Part shown: piece after piece, positions 1 through 8,706 of the stretch
Position numbering within the stretch: position 1 is the first letter of the stretch
How the letters are laid out: each line of letters opens with the position of its first letter
NCBI GenBank assembly: GCA_944390685.1
Contig: CALXQL010000006.1
Location: 24,108-88,107 of the forward strand
Length of the DNA stretch: 64,000 nucleotides
Direction of reading: 5' to 3'
Origin: an uncultured Alphaproteobacteria bacterium
GTDB lineage: Bacteria; Pseudomonadota; Alphaproteobacteria; Rs-D84; CACZYB01
Made by a program: the position numbers and the translations under genes
Notes under the pieces: model-generated
What the model was told of the DNA's origin: nothing
Seen by the model: only the letters and a program-made list of their open reading frames with translations
The model's database searches: none

Positions 1-786
1 TTTTGGAAAAAAAAAGGTTATGATTTTGGGAAAAGGGTATTAAATAAATTTGATAAAGAATTTTTCATAAAATGTGTTAAAAATTTACCAAATGGACAAT
101 TATGGTTACGTCAGGGATGGATTTCCGATTGTTCTTTTTCTCAAGAATCTTGGAAACTAATAGCTGAAATTAGTTCGTTACTAAATTCTTTTAAAATTAG
201 ATTACTTATAATAACAAAGATTCACTATACTCCTAAAAAATCTACTTTGGTAGAACTGGCTAAAAATAATGTTGAAATTAGAGTGTCTTTGTCTGCTCTT
301 GATACTGAAAAAGAATATAAAAACAGATTAAAATTTTTAAATATGTATAGAGATTTAGGAGGATTATCTATACCTTATATAATGTCATCTAAATATAAAA
401 ATGAAGAATTGAATAAAAATCAACTAGTTTTGGTTAATTATGTTATTGAAAATGATTTTATAGCAGGGGAACATCCTCTGCGGTTTGATAAAGGGAATGA
501 AATAATTAAAGATTTAGAAGAATGTGGATTTTCACATACTAAATTTCCAAATCAATATTGGTTTGGTAGACTTTTTTATAATATTCCAAACTTTATTTTG
601 CCACCACCTACCCATTTGAAAGAAAATTATTTCTTACCTACTTGTTATTTCTCACATTTAGATATGGAACATAAAATTGTTGGGTTAGATGGAAATTTAC
701 CAACATTTGAACAATTATCGAAAGATTCAACTCAAAAAACGGAAGGCTTAATGAAACATGCAGAATATGTTATACAAAAATATTAA
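1..786 (+). CDS. Hypothetical protein, 5'-truncated by the window edge. The reading frame is open from position 1, and the ORF track reports only from the first Met at 247.
   Basis: Frame 1 has no stop between position 1 and the TAA at 784-786. No recognised catalytic motifs. Faint resemblance to TIM-barrel beta strands of radical-SAM/photolyase-like proteins (IRVSLSALD), not supportable without an HMM search. Confidence 0.4.
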   Translation, partial: FWKKKGYDFGKRVLNKFDKEFFIKCVKNLPNGQLWLRQGWISDCSFSQESWKLIAEISSLLNSFKIRLLIITKIHYTPKKSTLVELAKNNVEIRVSLSALDTEKEYKNRLKFLNMYRDLGGLSIPYIMSSKYKNEELNKNQLVLVNYVIENDFIAGEHPLRFDKGNEIIKDLEECGFSHTKFPNQYWFGRLFYNIPNFILPPPTHLKENYFLPTCYFSHLDMEHKIVGLDGNLPTFEQLSKDSTQKTEGLMKHAEYVIQKY

Positions 787-1438
787 CAAGCAATTTTTTA
801 ACAGGATTAATGATGCTTTTAATGCATTAAAAAAAGATGGATATTATATTTTTAATGCAGGTAATTTATCAAAAGAAGACTTCTTAAATTTTTCTTATAG
901 CTTTGGAGAAGTGATTCCATCAGGTAGAGGAAAGGAAATGGTAGATGATATTTTTATAGGAGGTATCCAAAAACAAAGTTCATTACCTCTACATACAGAC
1001 AAAAGTTATTGGCGATTACCTCCTAGTTTTGAAATACTGTATGTTAATGATGTTTATAATATGAAGCATGGAGAAATAATCGTTGGAAATTTATTGGAAG
1101 CATTTAAACAACTGTCACCTGTGGAACAAAAAGAATTACTTGATTTTGAAGCGGTATACAAATCTCCTCAAAATAGAGATGAAGGAACAATAAAAGTAAA
1201 GTTAATTGGAAAAATAGATGATGATATATCTTTTTTTAGGTATAGATTGGATATTTTTGATTCATCAAGTCCTACAATAACTAAATGGAATAATATAATA
1301 AAGGATAACTTAATTTTTGTTCCTTATAGAAAAGGAGATGTTCTCATTCTTGATAATAAATTACACTGTGCAGGAAGAAATAATACTACATGGGGAGAAA
1401 ATGGTTCAAGACATTTATATAGAACATTAGTTATGTAA
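758..1438 (+). CDS. TauD/TfdA-family Fe(II)/2-oxoglutarate dioxygenase-like protein
   Basis: 226 aa. Has LPLHTDKSYW (an HxD iron-binding motif) and a distal His in LHCAGRNNTTW, typical of the TauD/gamma-butyrobetaine hydroxylase fold. Overlaps the upstream ORF by 29 nt in another frame. Confidence 0.5.
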   Translation: MQNMLYKNINKQFFNRINDAFNALKKDGYYIFNAGNLSKEDFLNFSYSFGEVIPSGRGKEMVDDIFIGGIQKQSSLPLHTDKSYWRLPPSFEILYVNDVYNMKHGEIIVGNLLEAFKQLSPVEQKELLDFEAVYKSPQNRDEGTIKVKLIGKIDDDISFFRYRLDIFDSSSPTITKWNNIIKDNLIFVPYRKGDVLILDNKLHCAGRNNTTWGENGSRHLYRTLVM

Positions 1439-1478
1439 AACTATAAAATTATGTAAAACATACAATATATTCTTTCAA

Positions 1479-2330
1479 TTAATGTGTGTTTTGAAATGTT
1501 TTTATAATTGTGTCTTTTGTTATATTGTTTGAATTAAATTTACGAAGTTCTTGTCCACACAAAACAATTGGAAGTTTATTTTTTCTAGCAAAATTATAAA
1601 ATGGTTGTTCGAAAGGGTATCTTTTTTTTTGAATATCTAGTAATACTCCATGAGGATATAATTCTTCTAGAATAATTCCAACAATAGAATATGTTTTGAT
1701 TTGTTTTTGACAAAAATCTTTATCCGCATGAAAATCTACTACTGTGTTTATTAAATTTGCATAATACTGAATTTCTTTATTCATATCAGCAATATTTACA
1801 AATGAAGCTAAGTGTTCATTAATATATTCAAAACAACCAGGTGCTAATTTTGAAAGTCGAATTGTTTCCATTCCAGACATTTCTTCTATATAATCTTTAT
1901 TTTTGTCCCATGCTACATCATATATGGAAAATGGAAATGTTTCATCATAATCAGGTAATATACTAATATATTTAAATTCAACATTTTCTGCTGAAAAAAA
2001 TTCTTTAAGTTGTTCATTTAAAAATTGTACTTTCTTATATTGTGTTTTTTCTCTAAGTACATTAACATTCGATGTTAATGCATTACTATGCAAAGAAAAA
2101 AAAATTAAATCATTTTTTGATAATCCTAATAATAACGAATTTATGAAAGAAAAGTATGTTCTTTTGGAAAGAAATCCGAGTTCTTGTATAAAGGAAACCA
2201 TTCTATATAAAAACTTTATAAATGCATCTGTTTGGAATTTTTGTAAGTTTGTTAAACCTATCGACTTAAATAAATCTGGATTATGATGTTCGATATCAAA
2301 AATTATCTTTCTAATATATTTTTCTTCCAT
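1479..2330 (-). CDS. Hypothetical protein (283 aa), no recognisable domain
   Basis: Long ORF with the lysine/asparagine/isoleucine-rich composition typical of genes in this window. No signal peptide and no family motif identified. Confidence 0.45.
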   Translation of the reverse strand: MEEKYIRKIIFDIEHHNPDLFKSIGLTNLQKFQTDAFIKFLYRMVSFIQELGFLSKRTYFSFINSLLLGLSKNDLIFFSLHSNALTSNVNVLREKTQYKKVQFLNEQLKEFFSAENVEFKYISILPDYDETFPFSIYDVAWDKNKDYIEEMSGMETIRLSKLAPGCFEYINEHLASFVNIADMNKEIQYYANLINTVVDFHADKDFCQKQIKTYSIVGIILEELYPHGVLLDIQKKRYPFEQPFYNFARKNKLPIVLCGQELRKFNSNNITKDTIIKTFQNTH

Positions 2331-2444
2331 TTATAAATACCTAAAATATACCTAACGGTATAATAGTAATCTATTATTGTATTTTGTCAATATTTACTTG
2401 CAACTAATTACAATTTCATATATAATAGTATATATAGTTAGATT

Positions 2445-3125
2445 ATGAGGTATGCTATGCTGTTATTTTTATTAGGAGGAACTAATATTTCAAAAGAAGA
2501 AAAGAATAATTTAAATCCTCCTTTTTCTTCATTGGAATTTGATGTGGAATTTTTGAAACTTGTAAAAAAAAATAAACCAAATATTCTTTTATTACCTACT
2601 GCCAGTGAAATATTAGATAGAGAACATATTTATGAGAAGCGATTTATTAAACAATTTAAGGAATATTTAAATTGTAATGTGGATTCTTTATATTTATCCA
2701 AAATTCGTTCTACAATTAAAATTCAAAAAAAGTTAGATTGGGCAGATTGTTTTTATATATCAGGTGGGGATCCAATTCAACTATTGAATATTTGGAATGA
2801 ATCTAATTTTATAAAATTATTTAAAAAGCAAATACAAACTAAGCCAGTATATGCGGTTAGTGCTGGAGCAATGATTTTTTTTAAATATGCATTGAATGGA
2901 AATAATGAAAAAGCAACTATTAAAAAAAATGGATTAAATTTTATTTCTGGATTATGTGTTCCTCATTTTAATAGACAAGAGTTGCTTCCTTTGAAAAAAA
3001 AATTACTATCAGATAATAAATACAAAATATACGGAATAAATGATGGTGAAATTCTTTTACTAAATGAAAAAGGCTCAATATATTATAGAGATAAAGAATG
3101 GCATATTTCCTCGTTAGAAGAATAG
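2445..3125 (+). CDS. Peptidase S51 family (dipeptidase E / cyanophycinase-like)
   Basis: 226 aa. Has LLLPTAS near the N-terminus, ISGGDP (the GG(N/D) motif of S51 peptidases) and AVSAGAMIF (nucleophile-Ser region). Confidence 0.55.
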   Translation: MRYAMLLFLLGGTNISKEEKNNLNPPFSSLEFDVEFLKLVKKNKPNILLLPTASEILDREHIYEKRFIKQFKEYLNCNVDSLYLSKIRSTIKIQKKLDWADCFYISGGDPIQLLNIWNESNFIKLFKKQIQTKPVYAVSAGAMIFFKYALNGNNEKATIKKNGLNFISGLCVPHFNRQELLPLKKKLLSDNKYKIYGINDGEILLLNEKGSIYYRDKEWHISSLEE

Positions 3126-3802
3126 ATATTTCTAAAAAAGGAAACAATTTTAGACTACTAGATATACTCGTAAACCTTAACATAAGACAGGCTCTATCTT
3201 ACAGAAACGATAAAAAAATTCCATAATTGTAAGTTTGAAATTTATAGTAGCAAAATTAGAAGATATTCGAGTAATTAAGGACTTCAAACAATGGCAAGAA
3301 ACCTATAAAAAGATTGAATATTTCAAGAAAAACTATACGTAAAATCACCAGATAAATATAGCCTATCAAAATATAAAAAATAAACTCACCTAACTTTGTA
3401 ACCCTATGGGAACGAAGTGAAAAATTAATTCTTTAAGATTTTCCAATAACCACTATTATCTGGACCAACTCGTTTAATAAAGCCATTTTGTTAGTTTGTT
3501 AAGATTATACTTTATTCCATCAGGAGAAATACCTATCTTATCATATAACTATTGTCTTGTAATTTTAGGATTTTTAGTTAATAAGTCTAAAATTTTCTGG
3601 GTAGTGTTTTGCTTTTTTGGGGTAGTAGATTTTAAAAATAATTTAATCTGCATTTCTTCATTATTAAGAAGATTTTTCTTACCCAAAAGAATTAAACTTA
3701 AAATATACTAGTGTTAAAAATAAAAATTAACATAAAATATTACTTGAGTTATATCAAAATAAAAACGTATAATAAAAAATTATAACTAAAAGGGTTTATA
3801 AA

Positions 3803-5574
3803 ATGAAGTTATCAAAAATAAGAATAAAGAATTTTCGTGGTCACATTGATACAACTGTAAATATATCAAATTTAAATGTTATAATAGGACCAAATGATAT
3901 TGGAAAATCATCAATAATAGATGCTTTTGATATATATTTTAATGATTATCCAATAGATATTTCAGATGTAAACGTATTTATACCAGAAAATACGCCCAAA
4001 ATTGTTGAAATTTCTTGTTCTTTTATTGTTGATAAAAATGAGGCAGTTACACTAGACGCTAGTGAAAATACAGCAACATCTTTAGCTTCAGAATACTTAT
4101 TAAATAAAGATGGATTTCTTGAAATCTGTAAAAAATATGATTTTAGTACAAATAAAATAAAAAAAAGTATTCAGATTATAACAAAACACCCATCTAATTT
4201 TACACCTGCATTAATATTACAAAAAATAAACGATTTAAAAAAATTAGCTTCTGATAATAATATTACCCCAACTAATAATAATATAAAAAAAGACATAAGA
4301 AAAGCGATTTTTGAACAATATCCTAACTTAAATTGGGATAATGAATTTACTATTGAAGTAGAAGCAAAGGAAAACGATATTACACAAATTTTTAATAAAT
4401 TCAAAGACGATTTTCCAACATATATGGTTTTTCGTGCAGATAGAACAAATACAGATAAAGATAAAGATAAAGAAGTTAGTGAAACCACAAATGCAATTAC
4501 AAAAAGTGTTGTATCAGAACTAGAAAACGAATTTAATAATATAAAAAATAAAATAACAGATCAAATAAATACTTTAGCACAAAAAACACTCGAAAAACTA
4601 AAATTATTCGATGAAAATATATCAAATAGTTTAAAATCAAATATACAAACAAAACAACTATCCTCTTTATTTTCATTTACATTTGATTGTGATAATGGAA
4701 TTTCATTTAATAAAAGAGGAAGTGGTGTAAAAAGATTAATGTTATTAAGTTTTTTTCTTGCTGATGCAGAACAAAAAAATACAAACAAAACATTATATAC
4801 GCAATAGAAGAACCTGAAACATCACAACATCCAGATTATCAAATAATGTTAATAAATTCTTTAAAAGATTTATCAGATAAAAATAACAGACAAATAATAA
4901 TCACTACACATACTCCAGAAATAGTAAAAATTGTAAAAAAAGAAAATCTAATCTTTTTAAATAAAGATAGATCAAATATACTAAAGATACAACAAAATGA
5001 AACTTTAGAAATCAAAAAAATTGTTGATAATTTAGGAATTCTACCATATGTATCTTATAAAGAGGTAATATTTGTAGAAGGAAAAACTGATATAAGTTTT
5101 CTTAAAAATTTAAATCAATTTCAAGACTGTAAGAATATAATTGATATAACGCAATTTTCAATTATAGAATTAAATGGTTGTGCTAATGTTGATACATGGA
5201 TAAAAAATGACTATTTAGAAAATTCAAATATTAAACGTTTATATTTTCGAGATAGGAATAATAATAAAATAGAAACGGAAAATCAAAAAAACAATGTTAT
5301 AATAACAAAAAAAAGAGAAATAGAAAATTATATACCATATAATTTAATTGAAAACTACTTCAATATTGCTTTCACAAAAACAGAAAAAGAAAATTGGAAT
5401 GATATAGATGTTACTAAACATATACGAGGTAAAATAAATAACAAATACAAAAATGAAGATATAAAAAGAATATTAGAATCTCGAGATATATGGAATAATT
5501 TAAAATTACCAGATGATAGTATGAATGAAATAAAAGAATGGTTTAATAAAATAAAAAACTATTTTGATGACTAA
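3803..5574 (+). pseudogene. OLD-family ATP-dependent endonuclease (ABC-type ATPase plus C-terminal Toprim; class-1 OLD or fused PARIS AriAB-like), interrupted by a +1/-1 frameshift in an A7 tract
   Basis: N-terminus MKLSKIRIKNFRGHIDTTVNISNLNVIIGPNDIGKSSIIDAF is the OLD/AAA_15 Walker A. The ABC signature-like KRGSGVKRLMLLSFFLA lies before the break. Part 1 runs 3803..4807 in frame 2 and ends TLYTQ*. A different frame (frame 1) is open from 4765 after an in-frame TGA (4762-4764) and reads IIYAIEEPETSQHPDYQIM...QIIITTHTPE (Walker B and H-loop) up to the ATG at 4846 where the ORF track starts the second ORF. The second part also carries VIFVEGKTDISFLKNL, a Toprim motif. The reading frames swap at acaaaaaaatacaaacaaaa (4771..4790). 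Confidence 0.7.
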
Positions 5575-5798
5575 TTAATAGAATTTATAACGTATTGATT
5601 TTAAGAACTTCCTTTATAAATAAGAAAATAAAAATGAATACAGAAGAAGTAACAAATAAACTTATTAATTATATTCAACAAGCAAGAACATATCCATAAA
5701 AAAACAAATGATAAATCTATATTAGTAGCCAGATCTTTATATAGTGTAATTATTAGTCTAGCAAATAATGTTATATTTTGTATAAAAAACAACGAAAT

Positions 5799-6053
5799 TT
5801 ATTCTGCAAATGCTATAAATTGTAAATGCTTTTTATTCCAATGCCTACCAAGAATATTGCACTCTATCTGCTTCATTATTCGTTTCAGATTGTCTATTGA
5901 TGTGTATAAATTACTACTTTTTATATTCTCATGAAACTGTATTGTTAGCATATAGTTCGGCTTATATGTATCATCTATCCATTTCTTTAGCTCTTCCTTT
6001 ATTCTCATATTATTATGATATTGCTTCCATCTAGTTACCATACTTTCTATCAT
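5799..6053 (-). CDS. Short ORF (84 aa), possible N-terminal remnant of an HUH rolling-circle replication/relaxase-type protein
   Basis: MLTIQFHE resembles Rep motif I (uTuTu). About 40 aa downstream, KKHLQFIAF resembles motif II (an HuQ variant). The ORF stops before any motif III tyrosine. Weak, motif-level only. Confidence 0.3.
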   Translation of the reverse strand: MIESMVTRWKQYHNNMRIKEELKKWIDDTYKPNYMLTIQFHENIKSSNLYTSIDNLKRIMKQIECNILGRHWNKKHLQFIAFAE

Positions 6054-6421
6054 TCATATTATCATTATGCTTAATTGTGACTAGAATTATAACAAACAAA
6101 AATTTAAGGTTTTGCGTTATAAAAGTTATGACAGACTTTCTCCAAACAGAAAGATTTACAGCCTATGTATACAAAAAGTCCTATTATAATTTTCTAGAAC
6201 CGAACAATCTTCTAAAACTAATAACTATTTAACAAAGTACTAAAAAAACGGTTTTACTTAAGTTAGTAACCATATGGTAACGAACTCTATTATAAAAAAA
6301 GGCCCCCATTTAACGAGAGCCTTTTTAGTAAGTTTATCACTAAAAAATTAACAATTTAATACATTACAATGAAAATTTTCTAAATACAAAATATCCTTAC
6401 ATGTAAAAGGGCTTTTTTTAT

Positions 6422-6551
6422 AATTAATGCTTCTCACAAAAATATGAGGTCTTAGCTCTGGATCCACAACTCAGGTCCCCTGTCCCTCCCTAGAGGTAGG
6501 GGCTAGGTTGTTATACCAGTATCCAGGGCTCCCATCATAAAAGCATTAATT
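6422..6551. repeat. GC-rich palindromic structured element of about 130 bp (candidate small RNA, att-site remnant or MITE/RPE-like element)
   Basis: Perfect 11-bp inverted repeats aattaatgctt (6422..6432) and aagcattaatt (6541..6551) flank a GC-rich core (6446..6536), in sharp contrast to the AT-rich surroundings. The inner stem gctctggat (6455..6463) pairs with atccagggc (6521..6529) allowing one G-U pair. Further internal hairpins include CCCUA/UAGGG. Confidence 0.45.
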
Positions 6552-6588
6552 AAGAAAAATTTTCACTGTACAAATTAATAAGACTAAA

Positions 6589-6777
6589 ATGAAAAGTAGT
6601 TTTACAATTTTAGGTGAATATATACAATCTAAATATCCAGATAAAACACTCACAGATTATGAAACAGATGTAATGGTAAATAATATAGTTCAGTTTTTTA
6701 CCATAGGTGCAAAAATGGCTTATAACTATAAGAAAAACGGCGAAAATCTACAAAAAACTGCGTACAAATCAAAATAA
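6589..6777 (+). CDS. Short ORF (62 aa) of unknown function inside the degraded island
   Basis: ORF only. It lies immediately upstream of the recombinase fragments and may be another fragment. Confidence 0.25.
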   Translation: MKSSFTILGEYIQSKYPDKTLTDYETDVMVNNIVQFFTIGAKMAYNYKKNGENLQKTAYKSK

Positions 6778-6809
6778 TCCCTGTATAATATTAATATAAA
6801 GAATATGAA

Positions 6810-7632
6810 ATGATTAAATTTATAAAACAACAAAGAGGTAAAATACTTATTGTTGCTAATACAATTGATCGTATTCAAAGAAGATTTAAAGAATACAGTT
6901 TGTTAGATGATCTTCGTCGTGATAATAAAATTGAAATGTATTTTATAAGAGAACGTTTAACTATTAACTCTAAATCAAACGGTTATGAAATTGGTACATG
7001 GACTCAGGGTATTATGTGAGTTCAACAATATGTTATGCAATCAAGTGATAACATAAAAAGAGCAAATAACGAAAGCCGTGATAAAGGTAGATGGTTGCAT
7101 AAAGCCCTATTTGATACATTAATTATAAAGATTAATCAACTCTTGCAATGGTTAAGATAGATTCAATAAAAGGTTCTCTTTTTGCTCAAATGTTAGAGCA
7201 ATTGCTAACTATGCAAATAAAATAGGTCTTACAACTGGCTCTGGTAGAAAAATAACTAAAAAGAATGCAAATTATATGATACATAATACTTTCTATTATG
7301 GAGTAATGAGAACTATTGATGTATACAGAGCTCATACATGTGGTAATTTAATTACTAAAGAATTGTTTGATAAAATTCAAGAAGTAGCTTCAGGAAAATG
7401 CAAACCTTCATTTACAAAAAGAGCTGATACATTTATTTTTAGTGGACTATTAAGATGTGCTATATGTGGTTGTGCTATAACACCTGAAAGACATACTAAA
7501 AATAATGGAAAAACTTATACATACTTAAGATGCTTTCATTATGATCATAATTGTAAGCAACTATTATTGAATAAAAATGTCGTTTTACAACAAATAAAAG
7601 AAAAAATTTTTGATAAAAAAGAGAGATTTTAA
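6810..7632 (+). pseudogene. Serine recombinase (resolvase-type catalytic domain, recombinase domain and zinc beta-ribbon) broken into at least three frames
   Basis: 6810..7019 encodes GKILIVANTIDRIQRR (the DRLxR motif of the resolvase catalytic domain) and KIEMYFIRERLTINSKSNGYEIG. 7021..7275 in other frames gives ...GLTTGSGRKITKKNANYMIHNTFYYGVM (recombinase domain). 7276..7632 gives FSGLLRCAICGCAITPERH...YTYLRCFHYDHNC, the zinc beta-ribbon of large serine recombinases. In-frame stops lie between the pieces, and no intact N-terminal Ser nucleophile region was found. Confidence 0.65.
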
Positions 7633-7729
7633 AAATCATAAATTCGAACTCTTTGCTTGATGGAAAAAAGATAGTATTTTCAATAGCTAAGCATTTGATT
7701 TGATAATAAAAAATGATGAAAGTGTAAGA

Positions 7730-7806
7730 TGGTGGGTGATGAGAGACTCGAACTCCCGACCCTCTCGGTGTAAACGAGATGCTCTAGCCAACTGAGCTAA
7801 TCACCC
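7730..7806 (-). tRNA. tRNA-Val (anticodon TAC)
   Basis: Minus-strand sequence GGGTGATTAGCTCAGTTGGCTAGAGCATCTCGTTTACACCGAGAGGGTCGGGAGTTCGAGTCTCTCATCACCCACCA. 7-bp acceptor stem, D loop AGCTCAGTTGG, anticodon loop TTTACAC, T loop GGTTCGAGTC, CCA encoded. Confidence 0.9.
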
Positions 7807-7905
7807 GAAAGATGTTATTATTATATAACTCTTTTTTCTTTTTTCAAGTCTTTTTTCTTGTTTTTTACATTTTTTATTTTATAGTCTTATTTAGAGGTAT
7901 TTATT

Positions 7906-8136
7906 ATGAATAATGATGAACTTATAAAAAAGGCTAAATTACTTGGTTTAACAGATCAAGAAATTCAACAATTCATTGAAAATCAAGAAATTGCAAAAAA
8001 GTATGGGATAGATGATGATTGTTATTCTATAAATGTAGAAATAGATGAATCTATATTAAATGAAAATAATCATCATCATTGCGATTGTGATGATGATTGT
8101 TGTGGTGAGTGTTGCTCTGAGTCTCATAATAACTAA
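7906..8136 (+). CDS. Small protein (76 aa) with a helical N-terminal half and an extremely Cys/His/Asp-rich C-terminus (putative metal-binding)
   Basis: An agagg RBS lies 7 nt upstream of the ATG. The C-terminal 25 aa are NNHHHCDCDDDCCGECCSESHNN (6 Cys, 4 His). The gene is convergent with dut, and its stop abuts the dut stop. Confidence 0.55.
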   Translation: MNNDELIKKAKLLGLTDQEIQQFIENQEIAKKYGIDDDCYSINVEIDESILNENNHHHCDCDDDCCGECCSESHNN

Positions 8137-8604
8137 TTAATTTGTTCCACTACTTCCAAAACCTGAAATTCTATTAGCTTTAGGAAGTTCTGTTTCATCT
8201 TTTACTATTTCCATATCAAGTTGATATACTGGTTCAATTACACATTGCCCTATTCTCATACCTCTTTCTATTACTATTGGCTCATTTGAAAGGTTGATTA
8301 CTATCATGTGAACCTCTCCTCTATATTCATTATCAATAGTTCCTACCCCATTTGGCATAGAAAGGCCTTGTTTTAAAGAAAGTCCACTTCGTGATCTTAT
8401 TTGATAACCAAAACCATCTTCCAATGCCAATTTAAAACCAAGTGGAATAAGGCATCTTTCTTTTGGTAATATAGTAATAGAAGGTTCTTTAATACATGCC
8501 CTTACATCAAAACCAGTATCAGAAGGATAAGCATATTTCATCGGTCCCCAATTTTTTAAATCATAATTTTCAAGATATAATATTTTCCCTTTTACTTTTT
8601 GCAT
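8137..8604 (-). CDS. dut: dUTP diphosphatase (dUTPase)
   Basis: 155 aa with the canonical motifs GFDVRA, RSRSGL, GTIDNEYRGE and GFGSSG. Confidence 0.9.
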   Translation of the reverse strand: MQKVKGKILYLENYDLKNWGPMKYAYPSDTGFDVRACIKEPSITILPKERCLIPLGFKLALEDGFGYQIRSRSGLSLKQGLSMPNGVGTIDNEYRGEVHMIVINLSNEPIVIERGMRIGQCVIEPVYQLDMEIVKDETELPKANRISGFGSSGTN

Positions 8605-8657
8605 TTAGATTTCCTTTCGTCTTAAGAAAGTTTAAAATATTTAATAAAAAAAGTAAA

Positions 8658-8690
8658 TTAAAAAAGCCACCATTTAAGGTGACTTTTGAT
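8658..8690 (-). terminator. Rho-independent terminator-like hairpin downstream of the 8707..9120 gene
   Basis: aaaaagccacc/ggtgactttt stem (8661..8687). On the minus-strand RNA a U-run follows the stem. Confidence 0.4.
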
Positions 8691-8706
8691 TTATTTTTTG
8701 AGTGAT

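Follow-up and report, generated by a model that had tools for sequence, protein, structure and literature searches.

A probable, recently inactivated Class 1 OLD nuclease gene on a decaying strain-specific island beside tRNA-Val in an uncultured alphaproteobacterium

Nucleases of the OLD family are assigned to classes by gene context (PMC7049728, PMC10568477, PMC12392090). Class 1 is a single gene, Class 2 has a UvrD-like helicase (GajB) downstream, Class 3 lies within a retron, and Class 4 has separate AriA and AriB proteins. Described members of Class 1 are P2 Old, the Thermus scotoductus enzyme TsOLD (PDB entry 6P74) and Vibrio cholerae OLD. In TsOLD, the Toprim residues D431 and D433 together with E377 bind metal A, and their mutation cuts cleavage 12- to 15-fold (PMC7049728). 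The locus described here occupies positions 3803 to 5574 of a 64,000-nucleotide (nt) stretch, the window, of contig CALXQL010000006.1 (assembly GCA_944390685.1) of an uncultured Alphaproteobacteria bacterium. It is present as two open reading frames (ORFs), 3803..4807 and 4846..5574, and is probably a recently inactivated Class 1 OLD nuclease gene on a decaying, strain-specific island. All positions are those of the window, and the features of the locus are listed in Table 1.

The two ORFs are one gene, as a preliminary description of this DNA had proposed; the coordinates, frames and stop codon that it gave for them hold, as does its placing of the string acaaaaaaatacaaacaaaa, which contains the A7 run, at 4771..4790. 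The first ORF encodes 334 amino acids (aa) in frame 2, is preceded by a Shine-Dalgarno-like AAGGG at 3790..3794, read in the sequence, and ends with the stop codon TAG at 4805-4807. The second encodes 242 aa in frame 1, and a Shine-Dalgarno-like sequence was looked for in the sequence upstream of its ATG and not found. Across the break the upstream frame reads ...NKRGSGVKRLMLLSFFLADAEQKNTNKTLYTQ*, and the -1 frame reads ...KKYKQNIIYAIEEPETSQHPDYQIMLINS...TTHTPE...VIFVEGKTDISFL.... These readings confirm that the ABC signature motif (NKRGSGVKRL) lies 5' and the Walker B and H-loop (TTHTPE) lie 3' of a frame change within 4771..4790, the latter two in the -1 frame, and that the Toprim motif VIFVEGKTDISFL is encoded in the second ORF, both as previously described.

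The 374 positions of the Pfam model AAA_15 are divided between the ORFs, the first matching positions 1-323 (E 3e-37) and the second positions 348-374, with positions 324-347 missing from both. Restoration of one base gives a 590-aa protein that matches AAA_15 from end to end (1-374 of 374, E 1.1e-60). In a protein-database search the homologues were hundreds of single intact proteins of 583-606 aa, which aligned to 100% of the repaired protein, the closest clade at 57-62% identity. A split at the position of the break was found in none of 81 aligned relatives. Genetic code 4 was also considered and rejected; the first ORF ends in TAG, and housekeeping genes read normally in table 11.

Table 1. 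Features of the broken OLD gene and its surroundings, with positions in the window
Feature	Position	Strand	Remarks
5' part of the broken OLD gene	3803..4807	+	Walker A (GPNDIGKS), dimerisation/helical insert, ABC signature (GSG); ends at an out-of-frame TAG
A7 tract	4773..4779	+	CAA AAA AAT, read as Q-K-N in the upstream frame; second candidate site for the missing base
A4 run	4787..4790	+	Best-fit site of the missing base; putative ancestral AAA AAC (K-N); repair gives ...AEQKNTNKNIIYAIEEPE
Walker B stretch IIYAIEEPE	4792..4818	+	-1 frame; 5' of the first start codon of the second ORF; in neither ORF
3' part of the broken OLD gene	4846..5574	+	H-loop (TTHTPE), Toprim domain, C-terminal helices
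Toprim E426-G-K-T-D430	5077..5091	+	E426 aligns with GajA IEG; E..D spacing as in TsOLD E377/D381
Degenerate Toprim DxD, D484-R-N486 (gat agg aat)	5251..5259	+	D486N in the window
Serine recombinase (integrase) remnants	6810..7632	+	Large type, broken in pieces, truncated
tRNA-Val(TAC)	7730..7806	-	CCA end at 7730, where synteny with the sister strain starts

Membership in the OLD family, an ATPase joined to a Toprim nuclease as the preliminary description had read it, is supported by three independent kinds of evidence. With PADLOC the repaired protein matches AriA (essentially the AAA_15 module, and the best match of the N-terminal region), Old, and many GajA models, a GajA model covering residues 230-587. 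The C-terminal ORF alone matches GajA (297-537 of 570, E 3e-13), a retron ATPase-Toprim model and Old (307-529 of 578), and its match to Pfam OLD-like_TOPRIM (E 3.6e-4, 21.5 bits) is below the 23.2-bit cut-off. In a single-sequence search of the PDB the best match was the Thermus scotoductus Class 1 OLD 6p74 (E 1.7e-10), and with a family profile it was GajA (E 5e-16), the glutamate of its Toprim IEG aligning with E426. An AlphaFold model built from 82 sequences has a mean predicted local distance difference test score (pLDDT) of 82.8; the best Foldseek match in the PDB was again 6p74 (E 2e-19), followed by GajA and the Retron-Eco8 OLD protein.

The residues expected of the ATPase domain are present in the one-base-repaired frame (G29, G34, K35, S36; G306-S-G308; E336-E337; H370), at positions invariant in 81 homologues, and the domain is interrupted in the sequence as it stands. 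The C-terminal part is Toprim-like by the Old and GajA models of PADLOC, the Foldseek matches to OLD structures and the alignment of E426. This glutamate is invariant, and D430 is found in 80 of 81 homologues. The acidic metal-binding set (E and DxD; in TsOLD E377, D431 and D433) is incomplete: E426, D430 and D484 are present, and position 486, which is D in 80 of 81 homologues, is N in the window. From its place in the motif, rather than from a superposition, N486 would occupy a metal-A ligand position, the counterpart of TsOLD D431/D433.

By its context the gene is a Class 1 OLD gene, not part of a Gabija system, a retron effector or PARIS, because a GajB helicase, a retron and an AriB partner are all lacking. 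It stands as a single gene; within 1 kb on its 3' side there is no ORF of more than 84 aa, and the gene upstream encodes an S51 peptidase. A GajB- or UvrD-PcrA-Rep-like helicase is absent downstream in the window and is not consistently found in the relatives. No ORF of reverse transcriptase size flanks the gene, and for msr/msd RNA an Rfam search at the gathering score gave tRNAs only in the window, with nothing relevant at E<=1 in 5575..7750. AriB was not among the listed PADLOC matches of the C-terminal ORF, which were mainly GajA, retron ATPase-Toprim_I-B, PtuA, fused AriAB and Old. The neighbours of 50 relatives are heterogeneous and include no conserved partner gene.

The preliminary description had called the gene PARIS/Gabija-like, and this label is not upheld. 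Gabija GajA (Class 2) has the same two-domain architecture and a Toprim glutamate that aligns (IEG); the defining feature of that class, the GajB helicase, does not lie downstream here. PARIS shares the AAA_15-type ABC ATPase and a superficial likeness in its adjacent ATPase and Toprim ORFs. A genuine two-protein system, either a PARIS-like pair of ATPase and Toprim proteins or a split ABC ATPase that reassembles, would be in keeping with the separate AriA and AriB proteins of PARIS (PMC12392090) and with AriA as the best PADLOC match of the N-terminal region. It is nevertheless extremely unlikely. The break falls between signature and Walker B, inside the ATPase fold, not at the domain boundary that separates AriA from AriB. 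It removes Walker B, which is translated in neither ORF, and for this reason the two pieces cannot make a working split ATPase. The second ORF lacks a Shine-Dalgarno-like sequence, its part of the protein scores best with a GajA model while AriB is missing from the listed matches, and the close relatives are all single fused proteins.

Compared with the described Class 1 proteins, the gene shares the lack of a conserved partner, its best Foldseek and single-sequence PDB match is 6p74, and it carries acidic Toprim residues of the E, D and D..D type found in TsOLD. It differs from TsOLD in that the structural alignment gives only about 15% identity and in its clear GSG signature, TsOLD having been reported to lack a defining ABC signature (PMC7049728). 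Its helical C-terminal region, with the invariant lysine K555, recalls the helical domain of Class 2. Its relatives are often found in restriction-modification (R-M) operons, whereas Class 1 genes are described in a review as not proximal to defence genes (PMC10568477). Finally, the copy in the window is frameshifted and carries D486N.

The frameshift is a genuine one-base deletion, and a sequencing artefact is very unlikely because two other assemblies are identical to the window across the break. The ENA assembly ERZ24773515 (L001) is 100% identical over 9.7 kb (1145..10807) and ERZ28614407 (L083) over 4.4 kb (4152..8574), the break included in both, and an exact look-up found the separate 242-aa ORF on four contigs. 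An intact allele was not found: apart from the window's own fragments no protein-database match exceeds 62% identity, the exact look-ups gave split ORFs only, and a pattern scan of JGI metagenomes that permitted A7 or A8 and A4 or A5 gave nothing. The scan of GTDB species representatives was made over genomes that do not include the source genome. A further relative (L089) ends at 4771, 2 nt before the A7 tract, and yields no second junction allele.

That the frameshift is instead an error of sequencing or assembly and the real gene is intact, one of three causes offered in the preliminary description, could draw on the coverage of only about 3.9x that the contig name gives for the L001 assembly and on the fact that homopolymers are classic sites of error. 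The identity of the independent assemblies stands against this, as do contig names (NODE_, scaffold_) that suggest short-read assemblers, which seldom miscall A4 or A7, the remaining long A-runs of the gene, which are in frame, and the intact housekeeping genes nearby; we consider it highly improbable. Of the causes named there, genuine pseudogenisation is favoured.

Two side observations concern the assembly ERZ28614407. It breaks within the OLD gene, between 4005 and 4152, and its contig L088, which corresponds to 772..4005, has seven differences from the window, clustered at 3842..3929, within 130 nt of the start of the OLD gene. All seven are nonsynonymous, mostly G to T or A, and lie 76-163 nt from the contig end; three hit invariant Walker A residues (G29E, D32Y, G34V). 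They could represent a further-decayed allele or low-coverage errors.

The frame change can be placed no more finely than 4773..4791. The preliminary description had set the split at the A7 tract; its 20-nt stretch does contain the frameshift, and its choice of the A7 tract is unproven, alignment and profiles favouring the A4 run. A profile of 19 homologues gave the A4 repair the top score among all single-base repairs from 4760 to 4805, with 880.5 bits against 876.4 for lengthening A7 to A8 (a gap of 4.1 bits), and a profile of the 23 closest homologues gave 921.1 against 915.2 bits (a gap of 5.9 bits). The support for the A4 run from these scores is 17- to 60-fold.

The break was also compared with the relatives L003 to L005 codon by codon. 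The window reads GAA CAA AAA AAT ACA AAC AAA A-C ATT ATA TAC where L005 reads GAA AGG AAA AAT ATA AGT AAA AAT ATA ATT TAT (E R K N I S K N I I Y), and the upstream frame is collinear with the relatives through the A7 tract as far as the Lys codon at 4787..4789. With the missing A put back into the A4 run, the linker reads KNTNKNIIY and matches the pattern KN-T[SNT]-KN-IIY of the closest clade (KNTNNKNVIY, KNTSKNIIY, KNTTKNIIY), and repair in the A7 tract gives the linker KKYKQ. Rates of insertion and deletion climb steeply with run length, which favours a loss from A8 to A7 by a factor that a rough estimate makes comparable to that of the profiles. The A4 run thus appears somewhat more likely than the A7 tract to have lost the base, but the question is unsettled.

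The A7 run at the break is unremarkable because runs of this length are frequent in both the gene and the window. The OLD gene holds eight A-runs of at least 7, two of them A8, all in frame except the tract at the break, and such a run is no more than 15 nt away for about 16% of the gene; in the window there are 124 A/T runs of at least 7, or about one per 500 nt. An 18-nt quasi-repeat (4639..4656 and 4775..4792, 136 nt apart, 17 of 18 positions identical) overlaps the frameshift site, and its exact match would have grown if an ancestral A5 had lost one A, as in templated mutation. As a candidate template for the deletion it was rejected, since such repeats are about as frequent as chance allows in an A-rich gene.

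Apart from the frameshift the gene has changed little. The repaired 1770-nt frame is otherwise open, 5.4% of random substitutions creating a stop, and in a leave-one-out comparison only two residues, L42F and D486N, depart from positions otherwise invariant in 19 homologues. Because the frame is open and the departures so few, the inactivation would be recent; the figures imply less than about 3% neutral divergence since then, at 95% confidence.

The gene lies in DNA that is not shared with its nearest sister strain. A 163-kb scaffold of that strain (L086) shares 99.5% identity with the part of the window that runs rightwards from 7730, beginning exactly at the 3' end of tRNA-Val (L086 4300..4460). 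Beyond the tRNA gene L086 carries RecA and LexA in place of window positions 1..7729, and this segment, the OLD gene included, is therefore strain-specific DNA abutting a tRNA gene. Next to the tRNA gene are the integrase remnants, of which 6810..7019 matches Resolvase (positions 55-104 of 145, E 0.003) and 7276..7632 matches Zn_ribbon_recom (E 1e-8) and the integrase PHROG 95 (positions 307-441 of 651, E 3e-14). A second strain (L085, 93% identical) has the S51 peptidase gene and the gene upstream of it in common with the window and becomes unrelated from about 30 nt 3' of the peptidase gene (L085 1427..1618 compared with window 3123..3330). The segment 3155..7729, with the OLD gene and the integrase remnants, may be a separate insertion within a variable region. 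The relatives at 99.5% and 93% identity were found through Fmt and the S51 peptidase as anchors; together with further core genes, Fmt marks the source as an uncultured alphaproteobacterium, the closest named relatives being metagenome-assembled genomes (MAGs) labelled 'Alphaproteobacteria bacterium', at about 61% identity.

The G+C content of the window is 28%, with a minimum of 21-23% across the OLD gene. No direct repeat of the tRNA-Val 3' end of the attachment-site type was found at a length of at least 14 nt, and the absence of such a repeat is expected for a serine recombinase. Either the left boundary of the island lies outside the window or the region has been rearranged. A scan for promoters and terminators gave counts at chance level.

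Taken together, these observations suggest the following course of events. In the intact ancestor, a protein of about 590 aa, an N-terminal ABC-type ATPase into which a helical dimerisation region was inserted would have been followed by a C-terminal Toprim nuclease. Judged by P2 Old, TsOLD and Vibrio cholerae OLD, the protein presumably served as a defence effector that nicks or degrades DNA in an ATP- and metal-dependent manner. One A would then have been lost just before Walker B, most likely from A5 to A4 at 4787..4790 and alternatively from A8 to A7 at 4773..4779. The resulting 334-aa product lacks the nuclease and, of the ATPase, Walker B, the D-loop and the H-loop, and the downstream ORF has neither a ribosome-binding site nor Walker B; a putative catalytic Toprim aspartate has been replaced as well (D486N). 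Because the gene sits in strain-specific DNA at tRNA-Val, beside a fragmented serine integrase, it may be regarded as cargo of an integrated element now in decay where it inserted.

Several points weigh against inactivation. The frame is pristine save for the frameshift and D486N, as it would be in a gene still in use. The frame could be restored by a +1 slip at the A7 tract, which lies 8-14 nt upstream, at the cost of four changed residues in a linker whose length and sequence differ between homologues, and consensus assemblies would hide minority tract lengths. D486N alone need not abolish all function, since a micropublication reports that the phenotypes of E. coli YbjD, another Class 1 OLD, do not depend on its Toprim domain (PMC13261556).

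These points lead to an explanation in which the gene is still used, slippage in the A7 tract (either A7 to A8 in the DNA or an A added by RNA polymerase) yielding some full-length OLD with the slightly altered linker KKYKQ. A nuclease that may be toxic would thereby be expressed at a low level or in a switchable way. The A7 tract is the sole place nearby where a +1 slip could restore the frame, and an A added there gives an uninterrupted 590-aa ORF, undamaged in the remainder, that keeps every invariant residue except at N486. Rescue of frameshifted genes by poly(A) slippage is established in AT-rich endosymbionts, and homopolymer tracts underlie phase-variable R-M and defence genes; the locus resembles these cases in its AT-rich genome (28% G+C), its frameshift at an A-run and its defence-type gene. 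It differs in the tract, which is only 7 nt long, short for efficient slippage and without observed variation in length, and in that the lesion probably lies outside it, as the profile scores indicate, and is accompanied by further signs of decay, among them the loss of D486 and the decayed integrase nearby.

The remaining evidence also stands against continued use. In every assembly covering the break (the window, L001 and L083) a single tract state is seen, and the 242-aa ORF is called separately on all four contigs that carry it. The seven other A7 to A8 runs of the gene are in frame, and a frameshift at the position of the break occurs in no relative. The phase variation that the preliminary description had offered as a third cause, for which a long tract of varying length would be expected, thus finds no support. 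Nor does programmed -1 frameshifting: the relatives have no frameshift, the fold of the 100 nt downstream of the break is about as stable as that of shuffled sequence (z 0.12), and A_AAA_AAT does not rank among the strong slippery motifs. Continued use through slippage is very unlikely on this evidence. The more specific idea that slippage at A7 keeps a toxic OLD nuclease mostly off, with full-length protein in a minority of transcripts or cells as a bet-hedging switch, is likewise very unlikely; if true, it would be a defence switch in a Class 1 OLD gene of a low-GC gut alphaproteobacterium. Recent inactivation by a one-base deletion remains the preferred explanation.

The closest homologues of the gene come from MAGs labelled Alphaproteobacteria or proteobacterium, one of them named from sheep rectum. 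Members of the subfamily were found on 359 plasmid records, of which 293 are conjugative, and seldom in phage records. Neighbours are given for the relatives in which they were identified; some relatives have unrelated genes downstream. The homologue lies between HsdS and HsdR of a type I system in L014 (HsdM-HsdS-[OLD]-HsdR), HsdR is likewise downstream in L018 and L025, type III Mod/Res genes are adjacent in L010, Dcm and an NgoFVII-like enzyme in L004, a DpnII system in L002 and L005, and a resolvase in L003. Disrupted copies exist among the representatives of other species: L009, L029 and L049, in MAGs of Helicobacter, Campylobacter and Cloacibacillus, are frameshifted, and L006, in a Helicobacteraceae MAG, has an in-frame stop; some of these disruptions are close to short A/T runs. 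Disrupted copies in several species suggest that the gene is often lost.

Some further features of the region were observed. The AT-rich intergenic stretch that separates the OLD pseudogene from the integrase remnants contains a G+C-rich, imperfect hairpin of about 146 nt (6414..6559), with a predicted RNA fold of -51.7 kcal/mol (z = -4.3). It occurs once in the window and matches no Rfam family; a small RNA, a palindromic mobile element and a recombination site are all conceivable identities for it. The ORFs 247..786 (+), 1479..2330 (-), 5799..6053 (-), 6589..6777 (+) and 7906..8136 (+) have no significant Pfam or PHROG match. The last of these encodes 76 aa with a tail rich in Cys, His and Asp and is kept in the sister strain.

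The finding has little significance beyond annotation. The locus should be annotated as one Class 1 OLD pseudogene, not as two proteins and not as PARIS or Gabija, and defence finders should not count it as active. It also shows clearly how a strain-specific island at a tRNA gene decays where it stands: the integrase is in fragments, and the nuclease carried as cargo has a frameshift. The OLD subfamily to which it belongs is uncharacterised, and the labels of its members go no further than 'ATP-binding protein' or 'AAA family ATPase'. It is common on plasmids, and its frequent position within R-M operons of type I, II or III qualifies the textbook picture of Class 1 OLD genes as isolated genes.

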